64,000 nucleotides of DNA from an uncultured Elusimicrobia bacterium (GCA_964510095.1 CAZEAE010000001.1:232551-296550), one strand, 5' to 3'. Shown: positions 1,607 to 62,013, counted from the stretch's first letter. Made by a program: numbers and translations. Notes: generated by a model not told the origin, from the letters alone.

Positions 1607-1743
1607 GCCGAACCCCTACCGATGGTTACCAAAAGTTCACCAAATCAGGCCCCTGCGGCGATTTGCGCTTGTAGACCATTCACCGTCGCCGGCGCGGCCC
1701 AAGGACACCTGAGCCGGCACCGTGACGCGGCTATACTAAAAAC

Positions 1744-2244
1744 ATGAGAAACCTACTCCTGATCGTGATGTTCGTCTCGACCTCAGCCGCGGCGCAGGAA
1801 TTCTCCTTCGACGCGGAGGCCATGGGCAAGATCCTCGCCGGGACGCAGGCGCTCAAGGTGAAGCACCAGGGTCGGCCTCTTCCGCCGATGGTGTCTGATT
1901 ACGAAACGCGGCACATCAGCTTCAAGCTGATAAGCAACGGTTCCGGACGGGATGACGGCGGCGTCTACGTCAATAAGGCGATCCAAATCTATCATACAGA
2001 GTCGCTCCTCGCCACGCTTTATCTCAACGACGATCCCCGCGGCTGGGCCGCCGCCAAGAAGCTGCTGCAGGCCTTCGAGGACCGCCGCCGCGACGCCATG
2101 AACCAGAAGCGCCGCCTCGTCATCGACTATGACGCGATCTCTCGCCAGAACAAGGCCGGCGCATGGGCTATGGCTTGGAATCCGAATGAGTGCGAAAACT
2201 TCGACGAAATCATCCGGCTCGGGATCGTGCACGCCGGTCATTAA
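1744..2244 (+). CDS. Hypothetical secreted protein; N-terminal paralog of the 2262..2771 product
   Basis: Signal peptide; the shared N-terminal motif is AAQEF....ILA.TQALK. Confidence 0.5.
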   Translation: MRNLLLIVMFVSTSAAAQEFSFDAEAMGKILAGTQALKVKHQGRPLPPMVSDYETRHISFKLISNGSGRDDGGVYVNKAIQIYHTESLLATLYLNDDPRGWAAAKKLLQAFEDRRRDAMNQKRRLVIDYDAISRQNKAGAWAMAWNPNECENFDEIIRLGIVHAGH

Positions 2245-2261
2245 ACAGGAGACCCATACAC

Positions 2262-2771
2262 ATGAAAAACATGCTGCTCGTCATGATGCTCGTCGCCGCT
2301 CCCGCCGCCGGCCAGGAATTCGCCGCCGAGATGCCCTTCGTGGCCGACATCCTCGCCAAGACTCAGGCCCTCAAGACCCCGCCGGCCGCTTCGGGCCGCT
2401 CAAACATGATGCTCGCGAGTTCCGGCGACAGGCGAGCCGATATCCTCGCCGAGATCGAGACGCTGAAGGTGAAATACCAGAAACATGAGAAGGATACGAC
2501 GCGGTCGGGGATTTACGCGCTCGAGATCAGCCGCTTGTACATGGTCCTCGCAACCACCTACCCTTTGGGCACCGCCGCCACGTCATCGCCGGCGCAAGGG
2601 GCCTCGCTTGTGAGTTTCAGCGACAGGCGCGTCGAGATCCTCGCCGAAATCGAGAGCCTGAAGGAGAAATATCAGAAATACCGGAACGACCCGACGCGGT
2701 CCGGGATTTACGCGATCGAGCTGAGCCGCCTGTACATGGCGCTCGCAAATCACGCGGACAGGCGCATATAA
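2262..2771 (+). CDS. Hypothetical secreted protein with an internal ~48-aa tandem duplication
   Basis: An RBS (AGGAG) lies 11 nt upstream. The repeat DRR.(D/E)ILAEIE.LK.KYQK...D.TRSGIYA.E.SRLYM.LA occurs twice. Confidence 0.5.
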   Translation: MKNMLLVMMLVAAPAAGQEFAAEMPFVADILAKTQALKTPPAASGRSNMMLASSGDRRADILAEIETLKVKYQKHEKDTTRSGIYALEISRLYMVLATTYPLGTAATSSPAQGASLVSFSDRRVEILAEIESLKEKYQKYRNDPTRSGIYAIELSRLYMALANHADRRI

Positions 2772-2786
2772 CACGAGAGCGACCCC

Positions 2787-3818
2787 ATGAAAAAACTACT
2801 TCTCGCCGTGATTTTCACCGCCTCACCTGCCGCCGCCGCTCAGACCACATTGCGCGCGCCCATCTCGGGCCCCAACGTGATCCCCGGCCTCGGAGCCTCC
2901 CTCGGCGGCGCCCGTTCCGCCGCGACGCCGATGCCGACAATGATAGTGCCCACGTTGTCGCCAGGCATGCAGGCGCCGGCGCTATCCGCGCTCGCGCTTA
3001 CGCCAACCCCCGCGCTGGCGGTCGACATCTTCCCCGCGGCCGCCCAGACGACCGAGAGCTCCCCCCTCGGCGTGATAGGCGACGCCTCCGCCGACGAGGC
3101 TCAGAAGACCGCCGCGCTCGACAGGCTCTTCGACAACTCCGCGCCCGCCGTCATGGACCACCATGTCGACGCCGCGGCCCCTACCCTCATGGGCGGCTCC
3201 GCCGGGAAAATAGGGCCATTCCCGGCGACGGAGTACACAAGCCTCAAGGCAGCCATCAAGGCACGCGGCGTCAAAGCGGGGCTTGCGCTGCAGGCAAGTC
3301 GGACCAAAAGAGAAGGACGCTATTGGTTTACCGTCAACATACGGGGCACTAGCGACGATTTCAAGAAAATCGAGGATCTCTTTGAAAAGGATTCCAAGGG
3401 CTGGAGCTATGCGGGGATTCCCACCGACATCCAGCTTCGCGGGACTCCGGTCGACCTTGCGGCGCTCGCTGCGCAACGCCAGAATGAATTCGCGCAGGCG
3501 CCCGCCTGGTTCGACGTCTCCAAGCTGAAGCTCGACGCGGTCATAAAATCCGGAGCCGGCGGGATCGCGGTCCTCCGCTACGGATGGAGAAGCCAGTACG
3601 AGATGACCGTCTTCGCCTTCCCGGGCGGCGAAAGCATTTCGTTCAAGGAATACCCAGCCAGCCCCATGGGCAACCCCAAGCAGTCCTTCGACGCGACGCT
3701 GGAAACGGCGGCGGCGCGAAAGGCGGCGGCGCAGATCCTGCGCGCCGCGCAAGCGCGCAACCCCGTCAGCGGAAAGGACAAGACCACGCTCGATCAGATT
3801 CTTGCTTTTCTCGAGTGA
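2787..3818 (+). CDS. Hypothetical secreted protein; C-terminal domain paralogous to the 549..1091 product
   Basis: Signal peptide, a Pro/Ala/Leu-rich linker, and a conserved C-terminal block (PMGNPKQSFDATLETAAARKAAAQILRAAQARNPVSGKDKTTLDQIL). Confidence 0.55.
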   Translation: MKKLLLAVIFTASPAAAAQTTLRAPISGPNVIPGLGASLGGARSAATPMPTMIVPTLSPGMQAPALSALALTPTPALAVDIFPAAAQTTESSPLGVIGDASADEAQKTAALDRLFDNSAPAVMDHHVDAAAPTLMGGSAGKIGPFPATEYTSLKAAIKARGVKAGLALQASRTKREGRYWFTVNIRGTSDDFKKIEDLFEKDSKGWSYAGIPTDIQLRGTPVDLAALAAQRQNEFAQAPAWFDVSKLKLDAVIKSGAGGIAVLRYGWRSQYEMTVFAFPGGESISFKEYPASPMGNPKQSFDATLETAAARKAAAQILRAAQARNPVSGKDKTTLDQILAFLE

Positions 3819-3904
3819 GCCCGATGTGAAGCGGATGATTCGCGCTGTCTGCGGTCCTTGACACGCCCGACCGGACCGGCTACAGTCATACCGTTCGGTA
3901 TGAA

Positions 3905-4420
3905 ATGATGAAAGAGAAAATGGACCGATTCGAGCTGTCGGTGCAGGAATGGCTGGGCACACCCTGGATACCCAGGCCCGTCAATCTATGCCTGGTGTTC
4001 CAGGTTAATTGCCCGGGTTGTTTCATCCTTTCCCTGCCTCAGCTCGAGCGGCTTCAGCGCGAGTGGGCGCCACGCGGCGTCGGATTCTTCGGCCTGTCCA
4101 CGGCCTTCGAAGACTTCGAGCTCAACGCGCCGGAACACACACACGGGCTTTTCCACAAAAGGAAGGTCGTCGGCGAGACCGCGAAGGCTCTGCTACGGGA
4201 GAACATCGACCCGGCCGCGCTCGAGATCAACTTCCCCGTCGGCATCGACCGGCGTTTACCCGACGGGCGAGGCGAGACCTTCGCCCGCCACAAACTGCCG
4301 GGTACGCCGACCTGGCTGATACTCGATGAAGAGCAACATATATTGACCGGCTGGTTTGGACACGAGGACGACGAGGCCGTAGCCCATCGCCTCGAGAGCT
4401 TGAGCCGCAAAGAAGACTAA
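3905..4420 (+). CDS. Thioredoxin-fold protein with a CPGC motif (redoxin / TlpA-like thiol-disulfide oxidoreductase)
   Basis: A CPGC dithiol motif near the N-terminus, with flanking sequence typical of the AhpC/TSA-redoxin fold. Confidence 0.45.
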   Translation: MMKEKMDRFELSVQEWLGTPWIPRPVNLCLVFQVNCPGCFILSLPQLERLQREWAPRGVGFFGLSTAFEDFELNAPEHTHGLFHKRKVVGETAKALLRENIDPAALEINFPVGIDRRLPDGRGETFARHKLPGTPTWLILDEEQHILTGWFGHEDDEAVAHRLESLSRKED

Positions 4421-5495: not shown

Positions 5496-6812
5496 ATGAA
5501 GAAAACGATTCCCTTAGCCGTCCTCATCGCATGCGCCGCCGAGCTGGCGGTGCCCCGCAGCCTCCAAGCGCAGGAGCTAGACACTGAGATGAAGGCCGCC
5601 CGTGATCTCGTCGGCGACGCCAGGCCCCGGCTGATGTCGCATAAGAACGGCATCCTCCAGCAGATCAACGACGCGCTGGCCCATCTGACGGCGGAGTCCA
5701 AGCCCTCGGTGGCGATGGTGCGCACGGCGAAGGGCTCGGGGACGGGGTTCGTAGTGGACGCCTCAGGCCTGATGCTGACCAACGCGCACGTGGTGCTGGA
5801 AGCCGGCCTCAACGCGAAGGTCAAGGTGGTCTTCGCAGGAGGCAGCCAATACGTGGGCACGGTGGTAGCGCTGGGCTCGATGGGGACCGAGCAGGACCCG
5901 TTCTCGGGACGCGATCTGGCCATCATACGCCTGCCGGCCAAATCTGGAGGCTGGCCGGCCTTGGCCCTGGGCGACGCGGCCAAGCTGCGCGAAGGCGACA
6001 TGGTGGCGATGATGGGCTATCCATTGGGGCTTCCCTTCACCTTGACGCAGGGCGTGGTCAGCGGCCTGGGCAGACGGGAAGGGGGCATCAAAGGCTTTCC
6101 CGTGAAATTCGTGCAGAGCGACGCGGCGATCAACCCGGGGAACTCCGGGGGGCCGCTGGTGTCGATGGATGGGCTGGTGGTGGGGGTCAATACGCTGTCC
6201 TTCTCGCCCAACGGAGGCTCCGACGGCATCGGCTTCTCGGTAGGAGCCGACGCGGTGAAGGGCTTCTTGGCGGAGTACAAGAGACGGGGCGCCTTCAGCG
6301 ACGGCTTACGAGCCGCGGGCATCGTCCGGAGCCAAGGCGCCTTGATGAAGCCCGCGTCCTGCCCGGCGCAAGAGACGCTGTCCCGGCCCTGGGTGGAGCA
6401 TGCGGGACCCGTTCCACAGGCGGCGCTTGACGCTCACCTGGGCGCGAAGCTTGACGGGGCGGCGCCGGTGCTGCTGCCGGTCAACACGGTATCGTGGTGG
6501 ATCGGAGCGTCTCGCCGCGGGCGGGGCGACGCCCCAGACTGCTTCGTCCTGGGCAGCGCGGGCCTTTACGTCAACGGGCCGGAGGACGCCCCCGCGGTGG
6601 ATTTCGTGAAGGTGGTGGGCTCGGGCGCCGAAGCCGGCTTGCGTTCGTCCTTGATCGAATTGCGGTGGTATGATGAAAAGGACGGCCGCAAGCACCGCTG
6701 GTTCGACACGGCCCTGGCCCGGCGCCTGGGGTGGGACGTCGACGGCCGCGGCGCGCCGACGGACATGCCCCGACCGATCCCGCTGCCCGCCGCGAGCAAC
6801 GCGCTGCTATAG
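5496..6812 (+). CDS. Secreted trypsin-like (S1 family, HtrA/DegP-like catalytic domain) serine protease with a ~170-aa C-terminal extension
   Basis: An RBS (AAGGAG) lies 7 nt upstream and the protein has a signal peptide. The catalytic motifs are TNAHVV (His), DLAIIRL (Asp) and GNSGGPL (Ser). Confidence 0.75.
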   Translation: MKKTIPLAVLIACAAELAVPRSLQAQELDTEMKAARDLVGDARPRLMSHKNGILQQINDALAHLTAESKPSVAMVRTAKGSGTGFVVDASGLMLTNAHVVLEAGLNAKVKVVFAGGSQYVGTVVALGSMGTEQDPFSGRDLAIIRLPAKSGGWPALALGDAAKLREGDMVAMMGYPLGLPFTLTQGVVSGLGRREGGIKGFPVKFVQSDAAINPGNSGGPLVSMDGLVVGVNTLSFSPNGGSDGIGFSVGADAVKGFLAEYKRRGAFSDGLRAAGIVRSQGALMKPASCPAQETLSRPWVEHAGPVPQAALDAHLGAKLDGAAPVLLPVNTVSWWIGASRRGRGDAPDCFVLGSAGLYVNGPEDAPAVDFVKVVGSGAEAGLRSSLIELRWYDEKDGRKHRWFDTALARRLGWDVDGRGAPTDMPRPIPLPAASNALL

Positions 6813-6818
6813 CCGACG

Positions 6819-8255
6819 CTATCGCTTGATCTTGCGCTCGGTCTGCTCGATGAGCTGGCGCGTCCTCAAAGACGGGCTCACCTCGAAGGCTTTCTTGAAG
6901 AATTTAAGCGCGTAAGGCGCGTCGCCCTCGGCCAAAAGGCACTGGCCCAGGCCGACGTAAGCGTCGGCCACGTTCAGGTCGCTGAGCCCGAGTGAGCCCG
7001 CCAGCTTCAGGCCTTCCGTGTAGAAGCCTTTCGCCTTGCGCACGTCGCGCTCGGCAAGCGCGATGGTTCCCTGGCGCTCGTAATACAGCACGCGCCGGCG
7101 GTCTTCGGGCGCCAGCATCGCCTCGGCCAGCTCCAGCTCCGCGCGCGCGTCCGCGAACTGCTTCGCGTCGATCAGGCGCCGGGCCTTGGCGAAATGGCCC
7201 TCGGCGGTCTCTTCACCCTTGACCGGCTTGGCCTCCTTGGGCACATAAGCCTCCGTCCTCGTCCCCCAATCCACCTTCGGGGGAGGCTCGCGCCGAGGCT
7301 CGACTTTTTCCGGGATCGGCGCGTCTTCCTCGGGCGAAGGCTCATGGCCATCGTCGTGGCCGCCCCAGCGGAACGTGACGCTGGCGCGATGCGTCAGCCC
7401 CAGGTCCCCGTAGGGAGCGAAGGCGTAGTCGATCGAGAAAGACCGCCAGCCCCAGCCCACGCCGCCGGTGATGCCGATATCGGTGTCATTGGCCCCATTG
7501 AAGCCCAGACGCATCGTCATGGGCTTGAGCAGGACGACTTCCACGCCCGCATGCGCCTTCAAGCGGTCGGTGCGCCCCTTGGTCAGGTCGACGGCCACCG
7601 TCGCGCTGTCGAAGGCGTACGCCGCGCCGACCCGGCCGCTCAACGGCAGCTTCTCCTTGTCCCGGATGAAGCGCACGTCAGGCCCCACGTTCTGGATCGC
7701 CGCGCCCAGGGTGAAGCGCGGCGCCGGCGGCACCGTAAGCATCACGCCCGCGTCGCCGGCGAAGGCCGAGGCTTTCACGTTGTCGTTGGTCTCCTGGATG
7801 AACTTCCCGGCCACGCCCAGGCTGAGCGCTCCGAAGAACGTATGGCCATAACCCGCCGCCACGGCCAGGTCGTCGACACGGAACTTGCCCAGCGCGCCGT
7901 CCTTGGAGGCGTAGGTCGTCCGGGGGATGTTGCCGAAGCTCAGGTAGTTGAGGTTGAGCCCCAGGCCCTGCCTCAACGCCAGCCCCATGTACTCGTGGTT
8001 GATGCCCTCCACGTAGGAGTTATGCATCATGGTGACCTCATGCCGGGTGACCCGGCCCAAGCCGGCCGGGTTGTAGAGCAGCGCGTTGGCGTCCGTCGCC
8101 AAGGCCGTGTAGGCGCCGCCCAAGCCGACCGCCCGGGCGTTGCCGTCCAGGAACAGGAAGTCGAAGGGCTCGGCCCCGGCCGAGGCCGCGCCGTGAGCCC
8201 AGCCGGCGGAGCCGGCTGCCCACAGACCGAGCCAAAGGGCCAGTGTCTTCTTCAT
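6819..8255 (-). CDS. Outer-membrane beta-barrel of the FadL/TodX/PorV superfamily, fused to a C-terminal TPR domain
   Basis: A signal peptide is followed by the motif GLGGAYTALATDANALLYNPAGLG, which matches the FadL/PorV N-terminal signature G.G.A...A.DA....NPA.L. The barrel ends in an aromatic residue (FRW). The last ~140 aa hold TPR-like repeats. The ATG overlaps the stop codon of the giant gene (ATGA). Confidence 0.65.
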   Translation of the reverse strand: MKKTLALWLGLWAAGSAGWAHGAASAGAEPFDFLFLDGNARAVGLGGAYTALATDANALLYNPAGLGRVTRHEVTMMHNSYVEGINHEYMGLALRQGLGLNLNYLSFGNIPRTTYASKDGALGKFRVDDLAVAAGYGHTFFGALSLGVAGKFIQETNDNVKASAFAGDAGVMLTVPPAPRFTLGAAIQNVGPDVRFIRDKEKLPLSGRVGAAYAFDSATVAVDLTKGRTDRLKAHAGVEVVLLKPMTMRLGFNGANDTDIGITGGVGWGWRSFSIDYAFAPYGDLGLTHRASVTFRWGGHDDGHEPSPEEDAPIPEKVEPRREPPPKVDWGTRTEAYVPKEAKPVKGEETAEGHFAKARRLIDAKQFADARAELELAEAMLAPEDRRRVLYYERQGTIALAERDVRKAKGFYTEGLKLAGSLGLSDLNVADAYVGLGQCLLAEGDAPYALKFFKKAFEVSPSLRTRQLIEQTERKIKR

Positions 8256-11200
8256 CGGATGATCGAAAGCCTCTTGATGATGCTCTTCTGCCCGGGCGAG
8301 GCGATCACGGCGAAATAGCCGCCCGTGGCCAATTCCCGCCCATCCTCGTTGCGCGCGTTCCACTGCAGCCGGCCGCCGCTGTTGGCCGAGCTGAACTGGG
8401 CGGCCAGCTTCCCGCTGACCGTGAAGACCTTGATCGTGACGGCCGCCGGCAGGTTGTCGAAGACGATGCCCGAGTTCACGTTGCCCGGCGAGAAGGGACG
8501 GCCCTCATCGGGGTTGACGCCGTTGGGCTTGAAGGGCACCGGATAGACGCGCACGGTGTCCAGGTTGGCGGCGCCGGCCAGCGGGAAGGCGGCGAAGAAG
8601 CTGAAGTGGCGCGTCGCCCCGTAGACCGTGTGGTTGACCAGGTCGATCGTCGTCGTCAGGTCGGCCGTCCACTGGTTGGTCACGGTATCGAAGCTGTAGA
8701 GCTTAAGATCCTGAGCGCGCAGCGAGGTGCCGTCCAAGATGCCGTCGTCGTTGGCGTCGAGGTAGGTGAAGGTCAGGGTGGCCGAATTGCCGCCGGAGAG
8801 CAGCGTCTGGCCGTTGCCCAAGGTGATGCTCATCGAGATGCCGACGTCCTGCGTGCCCTCCGGGGCCGCGGCCGGCAGGACCGGGGAGTTGACGACCGAG
8901 ACCGTCGTCGAGGAGCCGCTCAAAGAGCCCGCCGGCAGGTCGATCTTCGTGACCAAGGAGCCGACGCCGGCTCCCGTGATCGCTTGCGGCGCACCGTTGT
9001 TGAGCACCTCCTCGCGCGTGATCAAGCTTCCCACCAGGCGCTCGCGCACGTCCCACCCCGCGGGGTCGACGACGACGGTCACCACCCCCGGCGTCGTATC
9101 GGAGGAATCAGAGATGTCGGCAGCCACCGCGCGCAGGTCATAGCTGGTGGCCGTCAAGCCGGTGACGTCCCAGTGCAGGAACCAAGGGGCCGACAGGTCG
9201 CCGTTGGTCTGCGTCGGCCCGGCCGGCACGACCGGGAGCCAGGCCGTGTCGCTGGATGCCTTGTATTGGAAAAGCACGCTCTTGGTCTGCGCATCCGTGC
9301 CGCTGAGCAGCTGCGCCGACACCGTGACGCGGTCGCCGGCGATGCGCTTTCCTGAGACGGGGGACTTGATCTGGGCCCGCACCGCCGACACCGACGCCGT
9401 CGATGATGCCGAGGCGTAGACGCCGGAGGTTTCTTCCACGCCGCAACGGTGCGCCGCCCGCAATGCGAAGAGATAGGTGGGGCTAGAGACCAGCACGCCG
9501 GTCGTATATGAGGTCTCAGTGGAGGTGAAGACCGCCGCCGGCGTGACGAAGTCGACCGCGCCCGTGCCCGCGTCGTAATACAGCTTATAGGCGGTGATGC
9601 CTTCCGTAGGTGAAGCCGTCCATGACAGGGAGATGCGGTTGCCGGTCAGCGCGTTGGCCGCCAAGCCGCTGGGCGCCGAAGGCGTCGAGGCCAGGGTCAC
9701 GAAGGAGACCGTGCCGTCGAAAGCGGTGGCCACCGCGTCTCCATTGCGGTTGCGCACGCGCAGGTAATACGTCGTGCAGCCCAAGAGGCCCGTGTCGGCG
9801 TAGGCGACCACCGAGCTCAAAGACACCAAGGAGAAGGCGGCATTGTCGGTGGAATGCTGGACCTCGGCCAGCGTGTCCGCGGGGTTGGTGTTGAGGCTCC
9901 AGGAGATCGTCGCGCTGGTGCCCTGGACCAGGCTGATGACGCTGCCCGTAGGCGGCGCGGCTAGGGTATAAGCCGTCGCGGCCGCAGACAGCGGCCCTTG
10001 CCCGCTGACGTTGATGCCCGCGACGACCAAGCCGTAGGCGGTGTTGGTGGCCAGGCCCAGGTGCGAGAACGCCGCCGCCGCCGGATTGCCGATGATCGAC
10101 GCCGTGTTCGAAGCGGGGAAGACGTAGTAGCCGACGGCATCGGCCGCCGCGCCCCAAGTCCAAGAGATCGACGAGACGCCCAGGGCCGCGCCGACGGGCA
10201 CGCCCGGCTGGCCGGGGGCCGCCGGCTCCGTCCGGGTGCTGACGGTCGCGTCGAAGGTCGTGACGCCGCCGTTGTGGCCGAGCGTGCGCGCTTTGAAGTA
10301 ATAGGTGGTCGACGGCGACAGCCCCGCAGCCTCGGCGTCGGTCACGGAGACCAGCGTCTTGACGGGCGACGCGAACGCGGCGGAGACGTCGCGCCAGAGC
10401 TCGTAGACCGTGCCGGGGTCGGGGTTGCCCTGCGGCAGCCAGTCGAGCGAGACGGTCGAAGACGTCACGCTCAGGACCTCCGTCGCCGACGGAGAGAAGG
10501 CGGGGCTAGCCGCCGAGCCCAGATCCTTCACGGTGCTGGCGTTGGCCCCGCTGCGGGCCCGGACGCGGAAATAATAAGTCGTGTTGGCCAGCAGGTCGGC
10601 TCCGGCTCCGCCCGCGCCGAAGACCACTGAGAGGTTCAGCGTCGACGAGCTGAAGTTCACGGAGGCGAAAGCGTCGCTGGAAAGGTCGGCCTCGTAGCCG
10701 GTGCCCGGCGGGTTGCCGCCATCGGTCCACGAGACGGTGACGCTGGCAAAATCGACGGCGACCAGGCTGGGCGCGCCGGCGCCGGGCTCGGCGAGCAGCG
10801 TCGTCGTGGAAGGCAGCGTCGTCAATGATGTGAGCCGGCCGCCGTGGCCCAGGGCCCGGACCTGGAAGTAGTAGGTGGTGTTGGCGCTCAGGCCGGCGAA
10901 GGCCGCCGAGACGCCGTAGGTGCCGCTCGAGGCGTTCAAGGTCGAGAACTCGTCGGTGGAGACCCGCGCCTCGTAAAGCGTGCCCGAAGCGTTGCCATTG
11001 GCAGTCCAGTTCGCGGTGACCGCCGCCGGGCCGACGAAGGTCGGCGCCAAGGCCGCGGGCTCGGCCGGCAAGGTGGCAGTGGCGACGACGGCCACGAACG
11101 CCGTGGGCATCGAGGCGGCGTTGAAGGCCTGCACCCGCAAATAGTAAGTGGCGTTGGACTGCAGGGCGAAGAAGGTGGCTGAAGTCAGGAGCGTATTGCT

Positions 11201-14200
11201 GGAGGCGTTGACCGTGGTGAAGGCGTCGGTCGATATCTGGGCCAGATAGGGCGTCGCGGCCGGATTACCGCCCGCGCCCCAGGACAGCGCGGCCGAGGAC
11301 AACTCCACCGCGCTCAAGAAAGGCGCCGCCGGCGTGACGGCCAGGGTCGGCGCGGCGGCGGCTTGCGCGAACGGGCTCGACCCGCCCCAGCCCAGCGCCT
11401 GGACGTGCAGGTAATAGGTCGTGTTAGGGGCCAACGCCTGGAACGTGGCGGAAAGGGAGAGCGTCTGGCTGGAGAGATTCAGGGTCGTGAAGCCGTCCGT
11501 AGACAGCTGGGCCAAGTAGACCGTGCCGGCGGGGTTGCCGTCGGCCGACCAATCCAGCGTCATCGAAGACAGCGCTATCGCGCTCAGCGCCGGCGCGGCC
11601 GGCGAAGCGGGCAAGGTGAAGGCCGGCGCCGCCGCGATGAAGACGGTAGGAAGCTCGTTGCTGTTGAGGGCGCGCACCCGCAGGTAATAGGTGGTGTTGG
11701 GCACCAGCGCCTGGAAGGTGGCCGAGACGTTGAGCGTCTGGCTGGTGATGTTGAGGGTCGTGAAGGCGTCGGTGGACAGCTGGGCTTGATAGCGCGTGCC
11801 CGCCGGATCGCCCCCGGAGCCCCAGGTCAGGCTCATCGACGAGACGCTGGGGCCGGCGGCGGGCGCCGCCGGAGGAGCGGCCAGCGTGGACGTCGAGCCC
11901 AGCGCTACGTTGGCGCTGACATTGGAAGGCCCCACCGTGCGGACCTGGAAGAAATACGTGGTGTTGGGCGACAGCGCGCTCCCGGCGCCTCCGGAGCCGA
12001 AGAGGGTAGAGAGGCTCAGCGTCAGCGAGCTGAAGTTCACCGTGGCGAAGGCGTCGGTGGAGAGCTCGGCGGCGTAGAAGGCTCCCGGGCCGTTGCCGCC
12101 GCTGGTCCACTGCACGGCGGCGCTGGCGGTCTCGACGGCCAAGAACGAACCCGCGGTCAAGCCCGGCGGCAGGAGCAGCGTGGTGGTCGAAGGCAGCGTA
12201 GCGAAGCCCGTGACCTGGCCGCCATGCCCAAAAGCGCGCACCCGGACGTAGTAGGTCGTATTGGATAGCAGCCCTGCGAAGCCGGCCGCGGCATTGAAAG
12301 TCGCGCTCGACTCATTGAGCGTGGCGAAGGTGTCGGTGGAAAGCTCGGCCTCGTAGCGGGTCGTCAGCGGCGCGTTGCCGTTGGCCGACCAGTTCGCCTG
12401 GAAGGCCGCCGCGGCCACGGCGGAGGGCTGGGCTGAGACCGGCAGCGCCGGCGGCGTCGCGGTGGCCGGCCCCACGGCGAAGCCGGTGGCGGCAAACGCA
12501 TGAGAAAGCGCCTGCACGCGCAGGTAATAAGTGGCGTTGGACAGCAGGCCGAAGAAGGTGGCCGAGGTCAGCAGGGTAGAGCTCGAAGCGCTGAGCGTGG
12601 AGAAGTCGTCGGTGGAGAGCTGTACCGCAAAGCGCGTGCCCGCCGGGTTGCCGTTGGCGCTCCAAGAGAGCGCGGCCGAGGACAGCTCGACGGCCGTCAG
12701 TGAAGCCCCGGCCGGCGTCGCCGCCAGCGTCGGCGCGGCGGCGGCGGAAGCAAACGGGCTCAGCGCGCCGGCCCAGCCGATGGCTTGGACGCGCAGATAA
12801 TAAGTGGTGTTGGGCACCAGGGCCTGGAACGTGGCGGAGAGGTTCAGCGTCTGGCTGGAGGTATTGAGGGTCGTGAAGGCGTCGGTAGACAGCTGCGCCA
12901 GATACACCGTCCCGGCCGGATCGGCGTTGGCGAGCCAATCGACGGTCATCGAGGACAGGTTGATCGCCGCTAAAGAGGGGCTCGGCGGCGCCGGCAGCGT
13001 GACGGTCGTCATCGCCGCCGCGTAGCTCGAAGGCACGCCGTTGTTGTTGACGGCCCGCGCGCGCAGATAGTAAGTCGTGTTGGGGACCAGCGCCTGGAAC
13101 GTGGCCGACAAGCTCAGCGTCTGGCTGGAGGCATTGAGCGTGACGAAGACGTCGGTGGAAAGCTCCGCCTGATAGACCGTGCCGGCGCCGTTGCCGGCCG
13201 AGGTCCAGGTCAGGCTCATCGACGAGACGCTCGGCAGCGCCGCGGAGGCGGCGGGGACCGCCGCCAGCGTCGACGTCGACCCCAAGGGGATGTCGGCGCT
13301 GCTGTTGCCTCCGCCCGTGGCGCGCACCTGGAATTGATACGTGGTATTGGGAGACAGCGCCGGGCCGGCCCCGCCCGCGCCGTAGAGGACCGTGAGGTTG
13401 AGCGTCGACGAGCTGAAGTTCAGCGTGGCGAAGCCGTCGGTGGACACCTGGGCCACGTAGACCGTCGTAGGCCCGTTGCCGCCGCTGTTCCACTGCACCG
13501 CGACGCTGGACTGCTCGACGAGGAAGAAGGAACTCCCCGCCGGCACCGGCGGCAGCAGCAGGGTCATGGTCGCGGGCAGGACCGTGAAGGCGGAAAGCCG
13601 GCCGTCATGGCCCGAGGCGCGGACCCGGACGTAGTAGGTCGTGTTGGACAACAGCCCGCCGAAGCCGGCCGAGACGTTGAGCGTCGCGCTCGACTCCCGG
13701 AGCGTGGAGAAGGCGTCGGTGGATATCTGGGCCTCGTAGAGGGTCGTCAGCGGCGCGTTGCCGTTGGGCGACCAGTCGGCCTGCAAGGAGTTGGCCGTGA
13801 TCGCCGAGGGCGGCGCCGACGCCGGTTCGGCGGCCGAGGTCGCCGTGGCCGCCGCGACGGCGAAGGCCGTCTGCGCCCCCGCATGCGACCAGGCGGCCAC
13901 CCGCAAGTAATGCGTGGCGTTGGAGAGCAGCCCGAAGAAGGTCGCCGAGGTCAAGAGCGTCCGGCTGGAGGAGTTGACCGTGACGAAGGCGTCGGTGGAG
14001 TCTTGCGCCAGATATTCGGTGCCCGCGGGATTGCCGCCGGCCGCCCAGCTCAGCGCGGCGGAAGTCACCCAGACGCCGCTGACCGCAGGCGAGACCGGCA
14101 GGTCAGGGAGCGTCACGGAAGGACTCGCCGCCGCGAACCCGCCCGGCCCGTAATGACCGGAGGAGCGCACGCGAAGATAGTAGGTCGTGTTGGGCGTCAG

Positions 14201-17200
14201 CGCGGTGAAAGTCGCCGACTGGCTGAGGGTCGCGCTCGTCAAGTTGACGGTGGCAAAATCGTCGGTGGAGACCTGCGCGTCGTAAGGCGTGCCGACGTCG
14301 TTGGAAGGCGAGCTCCAGGTCAGGACGGCGGAGGACAGGTTGACGGCGGTCGACGTCGAGGCCGGGTCGGCCGTCAAGGTGAAGCTCGAAGAGGGCGTCA
14401 GGAAGGCCGTCGCCGTGCCGCCGTGGCCCAGCGCCCGGACCCGAAGGGAATAGTCCTTGTTGGAGACCAAGCCGAAGAACGTCGCGCCGGCGTTGAGCGT
14501 CCAGCTGGAGGCGTTGAGCGTGAGGAAGGCGTCGGTCGACTGCTCCACGGCATAGAGCGTGCCCTCCGGGTTGCCGTTGCGGCCCCAAGAAAGGCCGTGC
14601 GACGACAAGCCGACCGAGAAGACCGCCGCGACCGGCGGGTGAGCCCAGGTGGCGGTGGCGCCAGACGCCGCGTAGTTATAGACGGCGCCATAGAGGGTGC
14701 CGACGCGCAAAGTGTAGGTCGTGTTGGGGAGCAGGCTTTGCGGGCTGAGCTGCGTCGACGATCCGTTGGTCGTGACCGAGGAGACGATGCCCGAGGAAAA
14801 ATCAGCGACGGAGGAGACCTCGGCGGAATAGCCGTCGGAGGCCGCCAACGCCCAGCTCAGCGTCACGCTCGAGCCGGAGACGCCGAGGAGCACCGGCGCG
14901 GCCGTAGGCGCCGACTTGGAGGCTTCCAGCGTCTGGCCGTAAGAGCCAAGATTGGCCCGCGCCCCGTTAGGCGACGCCTCGAGGCCGGCGGCGGCGGCCG
15001 GATCGGCGGCGTCGATGGTGAGCGCGGTGACGCCGTCGACGACGAATCCGGCCGCGGCGGGGTCCCAGCGTCCGCGCTGAGAGCGGGGATGGAAATCCTC
15101 GACGCCGCCGGAGGCGTCGTTCCAGAGCGGCTGGGCCGCCAGCGAGTTGAGGTCCCGGCCGGTGCCCGAGCGCCAGGCGGCGAGGAAGTCATAGCTCGAC
15201 GCTCCCCAGGTCCCGGAGTTGAGGACGGCGGAGCTGAAGAAGTCGTTATAATCGGAGACGAAGCCGCTCTGGCTGTCGGCGGAGACCTCGATGGTCGCCG
15301 AAGCTCCCGAGACGCTGAAGGAGCTCAGGAAGACGTTGCCCTTGACTTGGACGCCCGTCGAAGCGGAACGGACGCTCAACAGCACGGCATTGTTGAAGTT
15401 CGCCCCCGTGGCGTGAAGGTCGTTGAAGAGCAGCGAGCTGTTGGTGGTGGCCCACAAGGAGACCGCCTCATGGCTGCCCGAGGTGATCTTGCCGGGCTCG
15501 TTGAAGCGGTTGTGGTCGATCACCAGACCCGAGGAGCCTAGCGCATAGAGGCCGTAAGCGGTGACGCCGGGGATGGCCAAGGCGGTGCGGTAATAGACGC
15601 CGTTATCCTGGATGGTGGCGCCCGTGATCAAGCCGTTCAAGTGGATGCCGTAGGTGTCCAGCGACGTCGACAAGGTGGGCAGGACCGTGTTCGAGGTGAT
15701 CCAGACCTGGGCGCCGGCGCCCTGCGCCGCGACCCGGATGCCGTATTGGGCGCCGGTCCGGATCGTGTTGGTCGAGAGGATCAGGCGCCCGGCGCCCGCC
15801 TCCAGCGCGATCCCGGCGCCCTGGGCGCCGCCTGAGACGGTGTTCGAAGACATCGACAGGTTCACGCTGCCGGAGCGAAGCCAGAGGCCGCTGCCCAGCG
15901 CCGAGGTCGCCGCCAGGAAGTTCGACGAGACGACGGTGCCCGTGGCGCCGGCCACGATCACGGCGGTGGAGCCCTCGATGTAGCAGGAGGACACCGTGTT
16001 GGAGGATCCCTCGAGGAACTGAAGGCCGGCGGTGATCGTGCTCAGCGTGACCAGGTTGCCGATGGAGCCGCCGGTGATGACGGGAGCCGAGAGCAGGCTG
16101 CGGCTGACCGTGTTATAACTGCCCCCCGTCAGACGCAGGACGCTGATCGTGCTGAGCGTGACGGTGTTGTAATCGGCGCCTCCGCTCAACACCAGGCCGT
16201 AGCCCCCCGGGCTGGGGATCGAGAGCCCCGTCAACGTGTTGAACGCGCCGTTGACGTCGATCGAGGAGTTGCCGGTGATGACGCTTTGCGACAGCGTGTT
16301 GTAGTTGCCCCCGATGAAAGCGCCGCCGCTGACGAAGCCGGCCGCGTAGCTCTGCGTGATGATGTTCGAATAGGAACCCACCGAGATGGAGAGGCCTCCG
16401 TTTCCCGTCATCGTACTGAGGCTGATGACGTTGTCGTGGGCGCCGTTCTTAAGCTGGGCGCCGCCGAAGTTGCCGTAGAAGCGGCCGTTGGTGATGGTGG
16501 AGGAGGACGCTCCATCGAGGACCAGCGCGGCGTCGCCGGCCCCAACGACGGCCGACGTCGCATACGAGACGACGCTCCACGGCCCGGTGATCACCAAGCC
16601 GTGGCCGGCCAGGACCGTGATGCTGGAACGCTCTATCGAGCTGCCGCTCGACACCCGGACGCCGGCGCTCCAGATCCCGGCCCGGCCGTCGACGCTGACG
16701 CTGGAAAGGGCGACGTAGGCCGAAGAAGACCAGACGCCGTAGGCCACGGTGTTGGTCGTGATGATGGAGATCTGCTGGAGGGTCACCGAGTCGTTGAACA
16801 CGAGGAAGGCGGCAGTCGAGCCCGCCGGGGGGTTGAAGACCGGAGCGGAGCTGACGAAGGTCGGGTCGGCCATGATCCTGAGCCGATAGCCGTTGTTGGA
16901 AAAACCCTGGATGGTGACCTGCTCGCTATAGGTCAGCGCGTCGCGGATGACGAGGCAGGCGTCGCCGGTCAGGCCGGGCGGCATGGCGTTAAGCGCCCCT
17001 TGCAGTGTGACATGGTCCATGCTGCCGTCCTGCTTGACGTTGAAGCCGGTCAGGCAGCCCGGCGGCAGGCTCGACGCGGTATGGGTGGCCGCGACGAAGG
17101 AATAGTTGGCGCTGCCGTTCCAGTTGAGCGCGCCCAGGCGCAGGTAGTAAGTGGCGTTGCTCAGGCCCGTCAGGCTCAGCGTGCTCAAGGCCACGTTGGA

Positions 17201-20200
17201 AGTCGCGCTGGAGAACTGCGTGCCGCTGAAATCAGCCGCGGTGGAGGCCACCAGCACGTAGCCAGAAGAAGTCTTCGAGGAAGCGTCAGGCGGGCTTAAG
17301 GCCAGCGGGACCCAGTTGACCGTCACGCTCGTCGCGAAAACGCCGTAGAGCGAGACGCCTTGCAGGTCGCCGGCCCAGGTAGCCGTGGCCAGCGAGGCCC
17401 CGAAGTCCGTAGCCAGGCCGGCATGGTTGATCGCCTGCACGCGCGCCTGATAAGTCGTGTTGGGCAGGAGGTTCAAGAAGGCCGCCGCCGAGCCCATCGT
17501 GCGGCTGGATTCGTTGATCGTGACGAAGGCGTCGGTGGAGAGCTGGGCTGAATAGAGCGTGCCGGCCGGGTTGCCGTTAGCCGCCCAGCTCACGATGATC
17601 GAAGACGTGAAGACCACCGCCTCCGAGCCCTCCGCGGGGACGGCGGCCAAGGTCGGAGTCGAGACGGCGGCGCCCAAAGGATAGACCACGGCCGAGCCGT
17701 AAAGGGCGCCGACGCGGACGTAGTACGTCGTGTTGAGCGCCAGGCCCTGGGGACTGAGCTGCGTGGAAGCCGCGTTGGCCGTCGCGGAGGAGATCACGGA
17801 GGCGAAGCCCGGGTCGGTGGCCGCCTGGGCGTTGTAGCCGTCGGAAGCCACGGCGCCGAAGGTCAAGGTGATGCTCGACAGGTCGACGGCGCCGGCGATC
17901 TGGCCCGTCGGCGCCGGCGCCGCCTTCGAGGCCTCGGCCGTGCCGCCGTAGGACCCCGCATTGAGCCGCGAGCCGTTGGGCGAGGGCTCCAAGCCCACGG
18001 CCTCGGCCGGGTCGCCCGCGTCGATGGAACGCGCCAGCACCCCATCGACGACAAAACCCCCCGTGCCCGGGTCATAGCGGCCCCGCGGCGAGCGCGGGTG
18101 ATAATCCTCGACGCCGGCGGAGGGGTCGGCCCAGTAAGGATGCTGGCCGTCGAGCGAGTTGGCGTCCTGCCCGCTGCCCGCCGTCCAGGCGGAGGTCAGA
18201 GCGTAGGCCGCCGCGCCCCAGAAGCCGGTGCTGTAGGCATTCGAGCTGTAGTAGCTGTTGTAGTCGGAGACGAAGCCCGGCTGGCTGTCGGCCGACACGC
18301 TGATGGTCGCCGAAGAACCAATGACGGCCGTCGAGCTGAGGAAGACGTTATCCTTGACCTTGACCCCCGTCGACCCGGAGAGCACGCTCAACCCGTAGGC
18401 GTTGGTCAGGCCGGCGCCCGCCACGTGGACGTCGTTGGACTTGAAGGAGCTGTTCGTGGTGCCCGAGAACTTCACGGCCTCGTGGCTGCCCGCCGTGATC
18501 ATCCCGGGCGCCCCGAAACGGTTGCGGTCTATCAAAAGCCCCGCCGCGCTCTGCGCATAGAGCCCGTAGGAGGTAAAAGCTCCCATCGACCCCGCGCTGC
18601 GATAGAAGATCCCGTTGTTCTGGATCGTCGCGCCGCTGACCAGGCCGTTGAGGTAGATGCCGAAGGTGTCGCGCGAGGCGGACAAGGAAGGCAGGACGGT
18701 GTTCGAAGAGATCCACAACTGCGTCCCCGGCTGCTGGGTGGCGGCATAGACGGCGTAGCGCGCGGCCGCCGGGAAGGAGTTCGTCGAGATCAGCAGGCGT
18801 CCTGAGTTGCCCTCATCCACGAAGAGGCCGGCGCCCTGCGCGCCGCCGACGAGCGTGCTCGTCGACAGCGACAGGTCGAGGCTGCCGGCCGACATCCAGA
18901 GCGCGCTGCCCGCCGTATGGGTGGCGATGAGCACCGAGCCGCCGATGACGGTGGCAGTCGATCCATGGATGACGGCGGCCGTCGAACCCTGGATATAGGA
19001 ATCCACTATGGTGTTGGAGGATGATTCGCCGATATAGAGCGGATAAAGGTCCGCCGCGACGGCGGCGGAAGTCATGGTGCTGCGGATGATGGCGTTGTAG
19101 TCGGAGCCGGTGACCAGGATGGCGCCGTCTCCCGCCGTGTTGCGTATGGTGGAATCGACCACCGTGTTGTGGTCGCAATCGGAGAGGAAGAACGCGGCGG
19201 CGGTCGCGGAGTTGGCGCTCAAGACGCTCTGGCTGAAGGTGTTGTAGTCGGCGCCGGTGTTCATGCCGACGCCTTGACCCTGGAGGTTCGAGATGACGGA
19301 GCCGGTCACGGTGTTGTTGTCGGACGCGATGACCAGCAGCGCCAGCGCGCTGGCATGGTTGCAGGCCAGGGAGCTTTGGCTGATGACGTTGTAGTCGGAG
19401 CCGTTGGTCAAGAAGGCGCCATAGCCCGCCGCCGAGTGCTGGAAGTAGGAGCCGGTCACGGTGTTGCTGTCGGAAGCGGTCAGATAGAGCGCATGGAAGT
19501 CGTCGCCGGAGACGGCCACCGTGCTGTATTGGACCGTGGTGCGTATGGCGTAGTTCAAGCGCAGGCCGTCGGCGCTTTGGACGGTGATGCTGCCATAGGA
19601 CACCGACGACCAACTGCTCACGGCGACTCCGGCCGTCCAGATCTTGCCGCCGGAATCCACGTTGACGCTGGAAAGCGTCACGTAGGCCGAAGACGACCAG
19701 ACGCCGTAGGCCACGGTGTTGGTCGTGATGACCGTCAGGTGCTGGAGCGTGACCGAGTCGTTGATCACCAGAAAAGCCGCGGTGGAGGCCGTGGGCGGGT
19801 TGATGACGGGCGCGCTGCTGATGAAGCCGGGGTCGGCCATGATGGTCAGGCGGAAGCCGTTGTTGGCGAGGTTTTGCACGGTCACCTGCTCGTTATAGGT
19901 CTGCGTGTCGCGGACGACCACGCAGGAGTCGGTGCCGAGGAATGAAAGAGCCGTCACGGCGGCCTGGATGGTCGTGTAGTCCTTGCTGCCGTCCTGCTTG
20001 ACGTTATAGCCCGCGCCGCAGCCGGCCGGCAGGTCCAGGTAGGACTGCGACGCCTCGGCCGTCAGGCCGTAGGAGCCCTGGTTGGCGCGCCCGCCGTTGG
20101 GATTGGCCTCGAGCCCCGCGCCCAGGAGAGGATCGCCCCGGTCGATGGTCTGGGAGGTCTGGGCGTCGGCGGCGAAAGAACCCGTCGCCGGGTTCCAGCG

Positions 20201-23200
20201 TCCCGACTGAGAAAGCGGATGGAAATCCTCGACGCCGGCGCCGGGATCCTTCCAGCGCGGCAGCACCGCCGCGGAATTGGCGTCCTGGGAGCTGGCGGCG
20301 CGCCAGGCAGCAAGCAGGTCATAGCTCAAGAGCCCCCACAGGGCCGAGTTCGCGCTGTTGGAGCTGTAGAAGTCGTTGTAATCAGCGGAGAAGCCCGTCT
20401 GGCTGTCGCCGGAGACGGCGATCGTCGCCGAGGCGCCGGTCACCGAGAAGCTGCTGGAAAGGACGTTGTTCTTGACGGCCACGCCCGTCGAGCCGCTGTG
20501 CAGGCGCAGCACATAGGCGTTGGTCAGGGGAACCGAGGCCGCGCCATAGAGGTCGTTGAACTTCAACGTCGAGTTTACCGCCCCCGCCAGAGAGACCGCC
20601 TCGAAGCCGCCCGCGCTCAACACGTCGGGCTGGGAGATCCGGTTGTGGTCGACGACCAATCCGGCGACGCTCCTGGCGTGGAGGCCGTAGGCGGTGAAGG
20701 CGCCCATCGAACCCGCGGCGCGGTAATAGATCCCGTTGTTCTGGATCGTCGCCCCGGTGGCCAGGCCGTCGAGGTAGATGCCGTAGGTGTCGTAAGCCGC
20801 CGACAGCGTCGGCAGGACCGTGTTCGACGCGATCCAGAGCTGCGTCCCCGCTTGCTGGGTGGCGGCGTAAACGGCGTAGCGGCCGCCTTGGAATACGTTG
20901 GTGGAGAGGACGATCCGGCCCTTGTTGCCGTCCGCGAGGAACAAGGCCCGTCCCTGGGCGCCGCCTGAGACCGTGGACGAGGAGAGGCTGAGGTTGACGC
21001 TGGTGCTGGAGAGCACCAAGCCGTCTCCCGCGGCGATAGTGACGGCCAAGACGCTGCCCCCGATGACCGTGCCGGTCGAGCCCGAGACGTAGACCGCCGT
21101 CGAGCCCTGGATGTAGGAGCCGAGGATGGTGTCGGAGGAAGAGTTTTGGACATAGAGTCCGTAGCCCGTCCCATTGGAGGCCATGGTGCTCATCGAGATC
21201 ACCGTGTTGGTGTTCAAGGCTAGGTAGGCGCCATGGCCATTGGCGCTGTAGGCGTATATCTGGCTGAACGAGTTGCCGGAGCAGCCTTGGACATCCAGCG
21301 CGGCGGACGACGCGTAGATGCGCGCGTTGGTGACGGTGTTGCTGGGCGAGGCGTTGAAGGAAAGGCCCACCTCCTGAGCGACCTGGATGTAGACGTCGGA
21401 GACCGTCGTATGGTGGTTGCCGCCCCAGGCCCAAAGGCCGTAGGCGCCCGCGATGAAGGTGCTGGCGCTGACGGAGGTATAGTTGGCGCCCTCATCGAGC
21501 CCCAGCGCCCAGCCGGCGCCCATGTTGCGGAGGAAAGAGCCGGTGATCGCCGTGCCGCTGCTCCACTGGGCTCCGATCACGTCTACGGCGGAGCTGTTGG
21601 TGACGCCGGTGCTGTAGGCGATCGTGTTGTAATCGGAGCCGACGTCCAGATATATCCCCAGCGCGCCGGACAGGTTCTGCACGTAGGAGCCCGTGACCGT
21701 ATTGCTGTCGGAGTGGCTCAAGTAGAGCACGGAGTTGGTTGTGGCCGCGCTCGCCGCATTCGAGACCATGGTGCTGAGGCTGATCGCGTTGTAGTCGGAG
21801 CCGGCGACCAGGCGGACGGCGGGGCCCGCCTGGCTCAGGAAGTAGGCGTTGGCCACCGTGTTGTTGTCGGCCGTGGAAAGAAAGAGCGCGCTGAAGCCGG
21901 AGCCGGCGGCGGAGGCCGTGCTGTAGAGGATCGTGCTGCCCAAAGAGGCGTTCAAGCGCAGGCCGTCGGCGCTTTGGACGGTGATGCTGCTGTCGGCGAC
22001 CGACGACCAGCTGCTCACCGCCACTCCCGCCGTCCAGATCTTGCCGCCGGAATCGACGCTGACCCTGGCCAGCGTCACATAGGCCGAGGAAGCGTAGACC
22101 CCGTAAGCCACCGTGTTGGTGGTGATGATGGCCATGTTCGTGATCGTCACCGAGGCGTTGGCCAGATAGAAGGCGGCGGTGGACCCCGCCGGCGGGTTTA
22201 TGACCGCCGGACCGGCCTGGGAGGGGTCGGCCGTGACGAAGCTCAGGCGATGATCGTTCATCGCCAGGCCCGACACGCTCACCTGCTCGCTGTAGGTCTG
22301 GGTGTCGCGGATGACCACGCAGGAGTCGACGGCCAGGGAGCCGCCGAAGGAGGCCAAAGCGGAGGCGATCGTCGTGAAGGCGTAACCGGTCTTGGCCACC
22401 TCGGCGGCGACGGCACAGCCGAGGGGCAGGCCCAAGGGCGTGACCACGGAGCTGATCGACACGAAGTTCGGCGCCCCCCTCCAGTTGAGGCCGCCCACGC
22501 GCAGGTAGTAGGTCGTCAGCCCGCTCAAGCCCGACACCGTCAGCGTGCTCAAGGCGGCGTTCGGCGTGGAGGATGAGAAGATCAGCCCCGTGTAGGTCGG
22601 AGAGGTGGAGGCTTGGAGCAGGTAGCCTTCCGCCGTCTTGGAAGAGGCGTCCGGCGGGCTCGATGGCAGCGCAAACCAGTTGGCGGTCACGCTCGCCCCG
22701 TTGACCGCGTAGACGGCGGCCGCCAGCACGGGCTTGCTCAGCGTGCCGCTGTCGCCCAGGACCGTGAAAGGCCCCCCCGCCGAGGTCGACACCTGCAGGT
22801 AGTAGCTGGTGTTGGGGAGCAGCGACACGGCCCCGCCGAAGGTGGCGAAGAGGTTGAGCGTCGTCGAGCTCTGGTTGCCGGCGAAGACGTTGGGCCAAGG
22901 CGCGCTGGAGAGGTTCGCGGTGTAGCTCAGCCCCGGCGGGAAGCTCGAGTCCCAATGGACCGTCACGCTGGTGGCCCCGATCGCCGTCCAGCTGGAGGCG
23001 CTGATCACGCCGAAGACCGGGAAGGTCCAATTCAAGTTGTTGCCGCGGTCCAAGCTCGAGGCCGCGGAGATGGCGCCGCCGCCGCTGGAGTCGATGTCCT
23101 TCACCGCCGTGAAGCTGACGTCGGAGAAGACCGCCGTCATCTTGCCGCGCGTCCCGTCGGAGCTGCTCCTGATCGTCTGCCTCGTGCCCGCCGCCTGGCC

Positions 23201-26887: not shown

Positions 26888-27276
26888 TTGACCTCCAGGC
26901 CGATCTTGCGCACCCCCGCTCCGCGCACGACGTCGAGCAGGGCTACGACCTCGCCGTACGGCAGGGTCTTGTCCGCCGACAGCGAGACATGCAGGTCGGG
27001 ACGGGCCTTGGCGAGCCCGGACAAGGTCTTGGCCAGCTCGGCGGCCGTCGTCAGCTTTCCGCCCAAGGCGACCTGCCGCTGAGCGTCGAAGAGTATCTGC
27101 AGCGTCTCGGTGGCGGTGCGTTCGTGGTGGGCGGCCTTGGGCACCTCGACCTTGAGGGCTCGCTTGGCGATCATGGGCGCGGTGGCCATGAAGATGATGA
27201 GCACGACGAGGATGATGTCGACCAGCGGCGTGACGTTGATGGCGGTGATCGCCTCGTCGCCGCTTCCGGACTGCAC
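26884..27276 (-). CDS. exbD: Biopolymer transport protein ExbD/TolR
   Basis: The motif INVTPLVDIILVVLIIFM is the ExbD signature. The start is assigned to a GTG (VQSGSG...) that overlaps the exbB stop by 1 nt; the longer listed ORF is an upstream-extension artefact. Confidence 0.6.
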   Translation of the reverse strand: MQSGSGDEAITAINVTPLVDIILVVLIIFMATAPMIAKRALKVEVPKAAHHERTATETLQILFDAQRQVALGGKLTTAAELAKTLSGLAKARPDLHVSLSADKTLPYGEVVALLDVVRGAGVRKIGLEVK

Positions 27277-27911: not shown

Positions 27912-27915
27912 GTCG

Positions 27916-61993: not shown

Positions 61994-62013
61994 ACATAGC
62001 CGGTCTTGTTTTT

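Follow-up and report, generated by a model that had tools for sequence, protein, structure and literature searches.

A 64,000-nucleotide stretch of DNA from an uncultured Elusimicrobia bacterium (GCA_964510095.1, CAZEAE010000001.1:232551-296550; hereafter the window) encodes on its minus strand a giant protein of 5,930 residues, whose C-terminal tail is related to type IX secretion system (T9SS) C-terminal domains (CTDs). The gene that follows overlaps it by 4 nt and encodes an outer-membrane barrel of the PorV/PorQ family. This pair, a CTD-bearing cargo coupled to a PorV/PorQ-like barrel, is a conserved cassette of the Elusimicrobiota and constitutes our main finding, larger than the tail itself. 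With somewhat better than even confidence, we propose that the tail is a T9SS-CTD-type β-sandwich that docks on its own co-translated 14-strand barrel of the PorV/PorQ family and in this way anchors the giant protein.

A CTD-like tail and its coupled barrel

The features of the cassette in the window are as follows.

8252..26044, minus strand: giant cargo open reading frame (ORF), 5,930 aa, ATG start, 17.8 kb (ORF list and translation)
25967..26044, minus strand: Sec-type signal peptide, residues 1-26, ending in AQA before AD, read from the translation by inspection
8255..8554, minus strand: C-terminal tail domain, residues ~5831-5930, predicted seven-strand β-sandwich, homologue of T9SS type A CTDs, closest to the PorZ CTD
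8252..8255, minus strand: ATGA overlap, in which the giant TGA (8254-8252) overlaps the barrel ATG (8255-8253) (sequence and in-frame translation)
6819..8255, minus strand: PorV/PorQ-family outer-membrane protein, 478 aa, with a C-terminal tetratricopeptide repeat (TPR) extension, directly downstream of the giant gene
7365..8174, minus strand: barrel domain of the partner, residues ~28-297, with short helices (34-68) followed by 14 β-strands (72-297) in the AlphaFold2 (AF2) model
7218..7358, minus strand: Pro/Glu-rich linker of the partner, residues ~300-346, predicted to be disordered (AF2 predicted local distance difference test, pLDDT, <50)
6825..7205, minus strand: TPR domain of the partner, residues ~351-477, seven helices (AF2 pLDDT >90; Pfam TPR)

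An earlier note on this DNA had described a T9SS-CTD-like tail at the end of the 5,930-aa protein. The ORF, its coordinates and the quoted C-terminal sequence are exact, and the span given for the tail (8252-8560) covers the folded domain together with the stop codon. The features it listed are also present: a YPxP start, alternating strands, a G-x-Y motif (GGYFAV) and a basic end (KRLSIIR), all of which are conserved columns of the tail family. The tail ends at the very last residue of the giant protein, which carries a Sec-type signal peptide at its other end.

The two profiles that the note had proposed for recognizing the domain do not reach their cut-offs on the window copy. TIGR04183 scores 16.9 bits with a 149-aa query and 17.9 bits with a 115-aa query (E 0.002-0.005; cut-off 23), and PF13860 (FlgD_ig) scores 14.2 bits (E 0.043; gathering score 27). 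PF13585 (CHU_C) gives 16.1 bits against a cut-off of 27, and PF18962 has no match to the tail at E<=1. As it falls short of these curated thresholds, the window copy is not a formal member of the T9SS type A CTD models. Its best match lies elsewhere: the tail aligns to the last 90 positions of the NCBIfam PorZ model with 34.3 bits (E 8.8e-9), a likeness that, judged by these scores, is not due to chance.

We assembled a family of 59 non-identical homologous tails from other genomes, aligned them and then scanned each singly. Each of the 59 hits the C-terminus of PorZ (best E 5.5e-19), and 58 of them match TIGR04183 at E<=0.01 (best E 3.4e-9). FlgD_ig is matched by 52 of the 59 and PF18962 by 33 (both at E<=0.01), and CHU_C by 39. 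The alignment to PorZ makes visible a family-specific insert of ~14 residues (KPNGxNPDEGxPYSxG) after the YPxP strand, and we attribute the low scores of the window tail against the curated models to this insert. Searched against the PDB, the tail-family profile retrieves the PorZ CTD of P. gingivalis (5m11, residues 664-758; E 1.8e-11) as well as the PorU CTD (6za2) and the NucA CTD in its complex with the F. johnsoniae translocon (8glk_D). It also reaches a Bacteroidales protein annotated with a T9SS type A sorting domain (E 4e-15).

The predicted structure agrees. The AF2 model of the window tail (pLDDT 90.9, predicted TM-score 0.82) has seven strands, and Foldseek places PorZ first (1.9e-7, 30% identity), followed by PorU (3.2e-4), the NucA CTD (3.9e-3) and then the CTDs of RemA and RgpB. 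The NucA and RemA CTDs among these matches come from SprA-PorV complexes. Taken by sequence family and modelled fold, the homology of the tail to the T9SS type A CTD superfamily/FlgD-Ig β-sandwich is solid. No second copy of the tail was found in the window by tblastn.

The 4-nt overlap of the giant gene and the barrel gene indicates that the two are translationally coupled. The earlier note had named the tail and the Sec signal peptide as the targeting signals of the giant protein; a terminal CTD on a Sec-exported protein is indeed what we find, and the coupled barrel gene next to it had been overlooked. The partner matches the NCBIfam model of the PorV/PorQ family (NF033709) over positions 4-325 of 326 with 146.1 bits (E 1.8e-42), above the cut-off of 90. 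Of the equivalog models, PorQ (NF033711) matches best with 95.7 bits, below its cut-off of 220, and PorV (NF033710) gives 51.3 bits against 250. No PorP/SprF model is among its NCBIfam matches at E<=0.01. In Pfam, it matches UPF0164 (25.5 bits, gathering score 21.4), PorV (21.1 bits, below 27) and, at the C-terminus, TPR_2/TPR_12. By these profiles the partner is a member of the PorV/PorQ family, yet neither PorQ nor PorV proper, with an additional TPR domain.

The partner-family profile retrieves F. johnsoniae PorV from the PDB (6h3i_F, E 2e-20). Foldseek with the AF2 model lists PorV from T9SS translocon complexes first (8gl6_F, 3.5e-14; 6h3i_F, 4.5e-12) and then the FadL family, including CymD. 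Since both ends of an even-stranded barrel, here with 14 strands, face the periplasm, the TPR domain would be periplasmic. More than 332 homologues of the barrel were found, and every one with a named organism comes from an Elusimicrobia/Elusimicrobiota metagenome-assembled genome (MAG).

The periplasmic extension varies among these homologues. The closest relatives carry a TPR domain, and many others have none (barrels among loci L027-L066). A 486-aa homologue (P0101) has an OmpA-like peptidoglycan-binding domain (PF00691) fused in place of the TPR. A 99%-identical barrel protein is encoded on a groundwater contig from Hainich. On a 4.8-kb Hainich groundwater contig with 98% identity (L002; ENA ERZ1292621), the barrel gene is immediately followed by a ~2-kb insertion (positions 2339-4313 of that contig) that encodes an AbiEi/AbiEii toxin-antitoxin pair. 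This insertion is missing from the window, where ~80 nt (6802-6883) align on both of its flanks.

The cargo itself appears to be a fibre. Its N-terminus, MSTSSYKSLARAFLLALMVSPAAQA followed by ADL (…LMVSPAAQA before ADL), was judged by eye to be a Sec signal peptide. Next come three N-terminal repeats of ~330 aa, three right-handed β-helix modules (Pfam Beta_helix, 1.3e-28), ~20 fibronectin-III repeats (Pfam fn3, 1.5e-99, 17 stretches), one or more immunoglobulin (Ig)-like domains and the tail; the repeats were located by motif positions. Neither the PorZ body nor the PorU catalytic domain has a match on the giant cargo. The protein is probably a β-helix and fibronectin-III fibre acting as an adhesin. 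G+C at third codon positions of its ORF is 0.91, in a region with ~67% G+C.

Conservation and co-divergence of the cassette

We surveyed the cassette by scanning one genome for each GTDB species and used the best 79 loci of 471 confirmed stretches. These loci are mostly from Elusimicrobiota. Single loci were found in MAGs labelled Omnitrophota, Lindowbacteria, Dependentiae and Armatimonadota, several in Hydrogenedentota, and others in WOR-3, Zixibacteria and Latescibacteria. In the 79 loci, an ORF recognized by a hidden Markov model (HMM) of the tail ends right upstream of 72 of the 93 barrel ORFs, with the tail at its very last residues. The barrel ORFs lacking such a neighbour are mostly located at contig ends or encode distant barrels. 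With an improved HMM and the NCBIfam models, the distant barrels too are found to be preceded by proteins with CTD-like tails, which are weaker.

The 4-nt overlap, as ATGA or GTGA, is present in 57 of 68 non-redundant cassettes. When the neighbouring genes were clustered, two families proved to be conserved from locus to locus, the barrel in 74 loci and the cargo in 68, with no third conserved partner gene. The caveat is that giant genes often shorten the upstream flanks of the compared loci. Several tails of other Elusimicrobiota cassettes pass the TIGR04183 cut-off, with 32.2, 29.6 and 24.4 bits, and one scores 22.7.

Cargo length ranges from 94 to more than 3,300 residues in the surveyed loci, and the tail is the sole part that is conserved among the cargoes. 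In every cassette, the protein terminates with the last residue of this domain. Even small tail proteins of 192 aa have a PorV-like gene next downstream. To look beyond these loci we relied on an exhaustive profile search with the tail, as a word-index search gave mainly short or fragmentary proteins. It returned 403 representative clusters at E<=1e-30, 13,552 at <=1e-10 and 123,345 at <=1e-3, with cargo of up to 6,306 residues in which the match is again C-terminal.

At least 13 genomes contain two to four cassettes, some of them in tandem. Carriers of the cassette include the complete or near-complete Elusimicrobiota genomes CP096137.1 (locus L033) and PLZD01 (L013 and L028), as well as MAGs of Elusimicrobiaceae (L047, L054); MEGAHIT-group-1.316 has three or four (L016, L029, L045). 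Among paralogous cassettes within a genome, the identity of the tails tracks that of the barrels (Spearman 0.89, n=18). The same holds over all cassettes (rho 0.83), where none of 2000 Mantel permutations reaches the observed value. This correlation fits duplication and divergence of tail and barrel as cognate units.

Six Elusimicrobiota loci (L015, L064, L037, L045, L081, L033) carry cassettes in tandem or of two subtypes within 10-20 kb. In one subtype, the tail contains the KPNG…DEG insert and the barrel is close; in the other, the tail is shorter and looks canonical (…KKLAIIH), and the barrel is distant. The cargoes of these loci include PQQ/BamB-like propellers, NHL repeats and delta-60 repeats. 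In WOR-3 (L073) and Zixibacteria (L074), a PorV-like barrel precedes two CTD-bearing proteins of ~1,115 and ~937 aa. Their tails are above the TIGR04183 cut-off (30.7 and 28.7 bits), and neither protein has a match to the catalytic region of PorU or the body of PorZ. More generally, the ~1,100-aa neighbours of distant barrels in Elusimicrobiota, WOR-3 and Zixibacteria were considered as PorU candidates and rejected: they are PQQ/BamB-like propeller or β-helix cargo, and only their tails match.

These data bear on whether the tail is simply a generic Ig-like (FlgD-Ig) structural domain that has no targeting or docking role and is terminal by chance. FlgD and other Ig-like folds are among its structural and sequence matches, as such an account would predict, and the window copy scores below all curated thresholds. 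A related domain also occurs in 5-15 internal tandem copies in some proteins (P0246-P0254 and similar), so the fold also serves as a repeated internal Ig-like module. Yet within cassettes the domain is invariably terminal, it is all that cargoes of very different size have in common, a PorV-like gene always follows it and diverges along with it, and its top matches are specifically T9SS CTDs. We consider the generic domain effectively excluded. Because of the coupled barrel gene, the tail is better read as a module that binds a partner.

Docking, sorting or export

In the attachment complex of Porphyromonas gingivalis, PorQ retains PorZ, and PorV retains PorU, at the cell surface. The window pair resembles PorZ-PorQ and PorU-PorV on both sides: the tail matches the PorZ CTD best and the PorU CTD next, and the barrel passes the PorV/PorQ family model, with PorQ as the best equivalog. 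In both PorZ and PorU, the CTD is not removed after secretion (PMC11285876). We interpret the tail as a docking domain because its nearest relatives are these two retained CTDs and because the barrel is PorQ/PorV-like. With the coupled barrel gene beside it, the tail resembles a retained docking CTD (PorZ/PorU type) that has a barrel of its own more than a sorting signal that is shared and cleaved off. The 1:1 translational coupling likewise suggests a complex with fixed stoichiometry rather than a shuttle used in common.

The pair also differs from the attachment complex. The cargo is a 5,930-aa β-helix and fibronectin-III fibre, and its tail carries the ~14-residue insert. The barrel lies below both equivalog cut-offs and has a fused TPR domain. 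The cassette genes are translationally coupled and multi-copy, and the host belongs to the Elusimicrobiota, not to the Bacteroidota.

In the proposed mechanism, the giant β-helix/fibronectin-III protein would be exported by Sec, cross the outer membrane and then appear on the surface. Its uncleaved tail would bind the surface face of the cognate barrel non-covalently, so that the giant protein is held on the cell surface. The fused TPR domain of the barrel would reach into the periplasm as a scaffold or tether. Physical binding, tail retention and surface anchoring are thus what we infer here.

Several points weigh against this proposal. The route of the giant protein across the outer membrane is unexplained by it, and the window copy of the tail falls short of the curated threshold of every CTD model. 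Co-inheritance of adjacent genes alone would also be expected to produce the correlation between tails and barrels. Finally, PorV shuttles cleaved CTDs in the canonical T9SS, and a shuttle role is thus conceivable for the window barrel.

Alternatively, the giant protein could be canonical T9SS cargo. A complete T9SS (SprA/Sov, PorK/L/M/N, PorU) would then be encoded elsewhere in the genome, and the PorV-like barrel would hand the type A CTD to PorU for cleavage and linkage to lipopolysaccharide. The tail does belong to the type A CTD superfamily, its structural matches include CTDs caught in the SprA-PorV translocon, and the TIGR04183 scores of other Elusimicrobiota cassette tails speak for this account. 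In NCBI records, some proteins from Elusimicrobiota already go by "T9SS type A sorting domain-containing protein" or "PorV/PorQ family protein". The window tail shares with canonical type A cargo (RgpB, RemA, NucA; TIGR04183/PF18962) the Sec signal peptide and a C-terminal seven-strand β-sandwich that starts in a YPNP-like way, contains a G-x-Y strand and is basic at its end.

Unlike such cargo, however, the window tail is sub-threshold and has an extra loop of ~14 residues, and the phylum is outside the known range of the T9SS. In the NCBI taxonomy, Elusimicrobiota are placed outside the Fibrobacterota-Chlorobiota-Bacteroidota (FCB) group, Hydrogenedentota inside it, and Omnitrophota in the Planctomycetota-Verrucomicrobiota-Chlamydiota (PVC) group. 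According to a 2024 review, T9SS genes are absent outside the FCB group (PMC11285876). The domain family and fold behind the earlier term "T9SS-type C-terminal sorting domain" are upheld, but sorting by a T9SS is, for this reason, not established for Elusimicrobiota. No T9SS core component was detected among the ~35 scanned proteins of the window. The 13 large neighbours of barrels scanned in other loci, among them the largest non-cargo ORFs, likewise gave no core component and no PorU catalytic or SprA match, a sample that is not evidence of absence.

A private barrel for each cargo, with a 4-nt overlap, is also unlike the layout in which one PorV is shared by many cargoes, and the closest matches of the tail are precisely the two CTDs that are not cleaved. 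Our literature search found nothing relevant that links Elusimicrobia with the T9SS, PorV or Por_Secre_tail, and the searchable literature yielded no account of the cassette or of what it implies. A preprint on giant genes deals with different proteins. Altogether, we regard canonical T9SS sorting of the giant protein as unlikely, although it is the alternative to be taken most seriously.

A precedent for docking on a dedicated barrel is known from Flavobacterium johnsoniae. The 669-kDa adhesin SprB is anchored there by SprF, an adjacently encoded cognate 14-strand barrel of the FadL family (PMC9143113). By analogy, this type B CTD system is the nearest functional precedent for the cassette: in both, the gene of a giant repetitive adhesin is followed by that of its own cognate 14-strand FadL-family barrel, with several pairs per genome. 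SprB needs the SprA translocon. Only the arrangement is shared, since the window tail is of the type A/PorZ kind and far below the cut-off of CHU_C (16.1 versus 27 bits), which we take to be the model of type B CTDs, and its barrel is of the PorV/PorQ family with no PorP/SprF match.

The periplasmic domains offer a further parallel. PorP-like barrels often work with PorE, a protein with TPR and OmpA-like domains, as in PG1035-PorP-PorE of P. gingivalis (PMC9143113). The TPR and OmpA extensions fused to Elusimicrobiota barrels recall this Bacteroidota protein. There, the TPR/OmpA protein is separate; here, the TPR is fused to the barrel, as is the OmpA-like domain in the homologue P0101.

The step across the outer membrane could also be carried out by the barrel itself. 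Aided by the β-barrel assembly machinery (BAM) and the periplasmic TPR, the PorV-like barrel would be a translocator or insertase that recognizes the C-terminal tail, similar to a split autotransporter or to two-partner secretion with a C-terminal recognition domain. Such a role would account for the conservation of just two genes with strict, translational coupling in a lineage from which the T9SS translocon is not known. The cargo contains passenger-like β-helix modules, and the fused TPR could serve as a receptor or chaperone. Type V secretion (two-partner systems and autotransporters) likewise places a giant β-helix surface protein beside a dedicated outer-membrane barrel.

However, passage of polypeptides is not known for a 14-strand barrel of the FadL/PorV type whose N-terminal segment is plug-like, and in the solved complexes SprA is the channel while PorV binds the CTD. 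Neither an Omp85/POTRA match nor a two-partner secretion (TPS) domain signal was found on the cargo or the barrel with Pfam and NCBIfam. Unlike in type V and Vb systems, recognition would here rest on a C-terminal module, and the barrel belongs to the 14-strand FadL/PorV type. The TPR domain is also missing from many cassette barrels. Export through the barrel therefore appears improbable to us.

A broader and more speculative idea, which we also hold to be unlikely, is that the CTD-like tail and the barrel with its periplasmic TPR form a self-sufficient system for export and/or anchoring that works without the SprA translocon or the PorK/L/M/N motor. Such a system would represent either an unrecognized outer-membrane pathway of Elusimicrobiota and a few non-FCB lineages, or an ancestral module of T9SS attachment or shuttling.

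Genomic surroundings and implications

Directly upstream of the giant gene, the window contains a block of genes on the same strand (26147-31051, minus), which ends 102 nt before the giant ATG.

29579-31051, minus strand: Memo-AMMECR1 fusion
27916-29582, minus strand: two HEAT-repeat proteins
27276-27911, minus strand: TolQ/ExbB
26884-27279, minus strand: ExbD/TolR
26147-26887, minus strand: TonB/TolA-like protein

The TolQ/ExbB, ExbD and TonB genes, together with the two HEAT-repeat genes (26147-29582), were considered as an energizing partner of the cassette. This was rejected, as only the cargo and barrel families are conserved across loci. The block is probably an unrelated Tol/Ton cluster, being unconserved beside the cassette in other genomes.

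Other parts of the window are more distant from the cassette. A tyrosine recombinase/integrase with an HTH_17 domain is located at 57524-59107; after it, G+C falls from ~0.66 to 0.53-0.58 along a run of minus-strand ORFs (59355-63513). The region 57524-64000 is probably an integrated mobile element. No tRNA genes were found anywhere in the 64-kb window. Three consecutive small ORFs (172, 166 and 343 aa) on the plus strand at 1088-3818 have signal-peptide-like N-termini, no Pfam match and a slightly lower G+C. The ORF at 35874-37448 contains an extracytoplasmic function (ECF)-type sigma factor sequence in its C-terminal part and is followed by a 687-aa VWA/YfbK_C protein (37450-39510). The two may be an anti-sigma/VWA pair.

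The T9SS and its CTD signal are regarded as a hallmark of the Bacteroidota and the FCB superphylum, and the cassette occurs across Elusimicrobiota. This leaves two possibilities: T9SS-like transport may be wider than thought, or the pair of CTD and barrel may be an older, separable module that anchors giant adhesins on its own. The cassette also provides a simple criterion for recognizing surface proteins in the genomes of uncultured diderm phyla: an ORF that carries the tail and whose TGA overlaps the start codon (ATG) of a PorV-like gene. The ~60 natural cognate pairs could be used to study the specificity between CTDs and their barrels.

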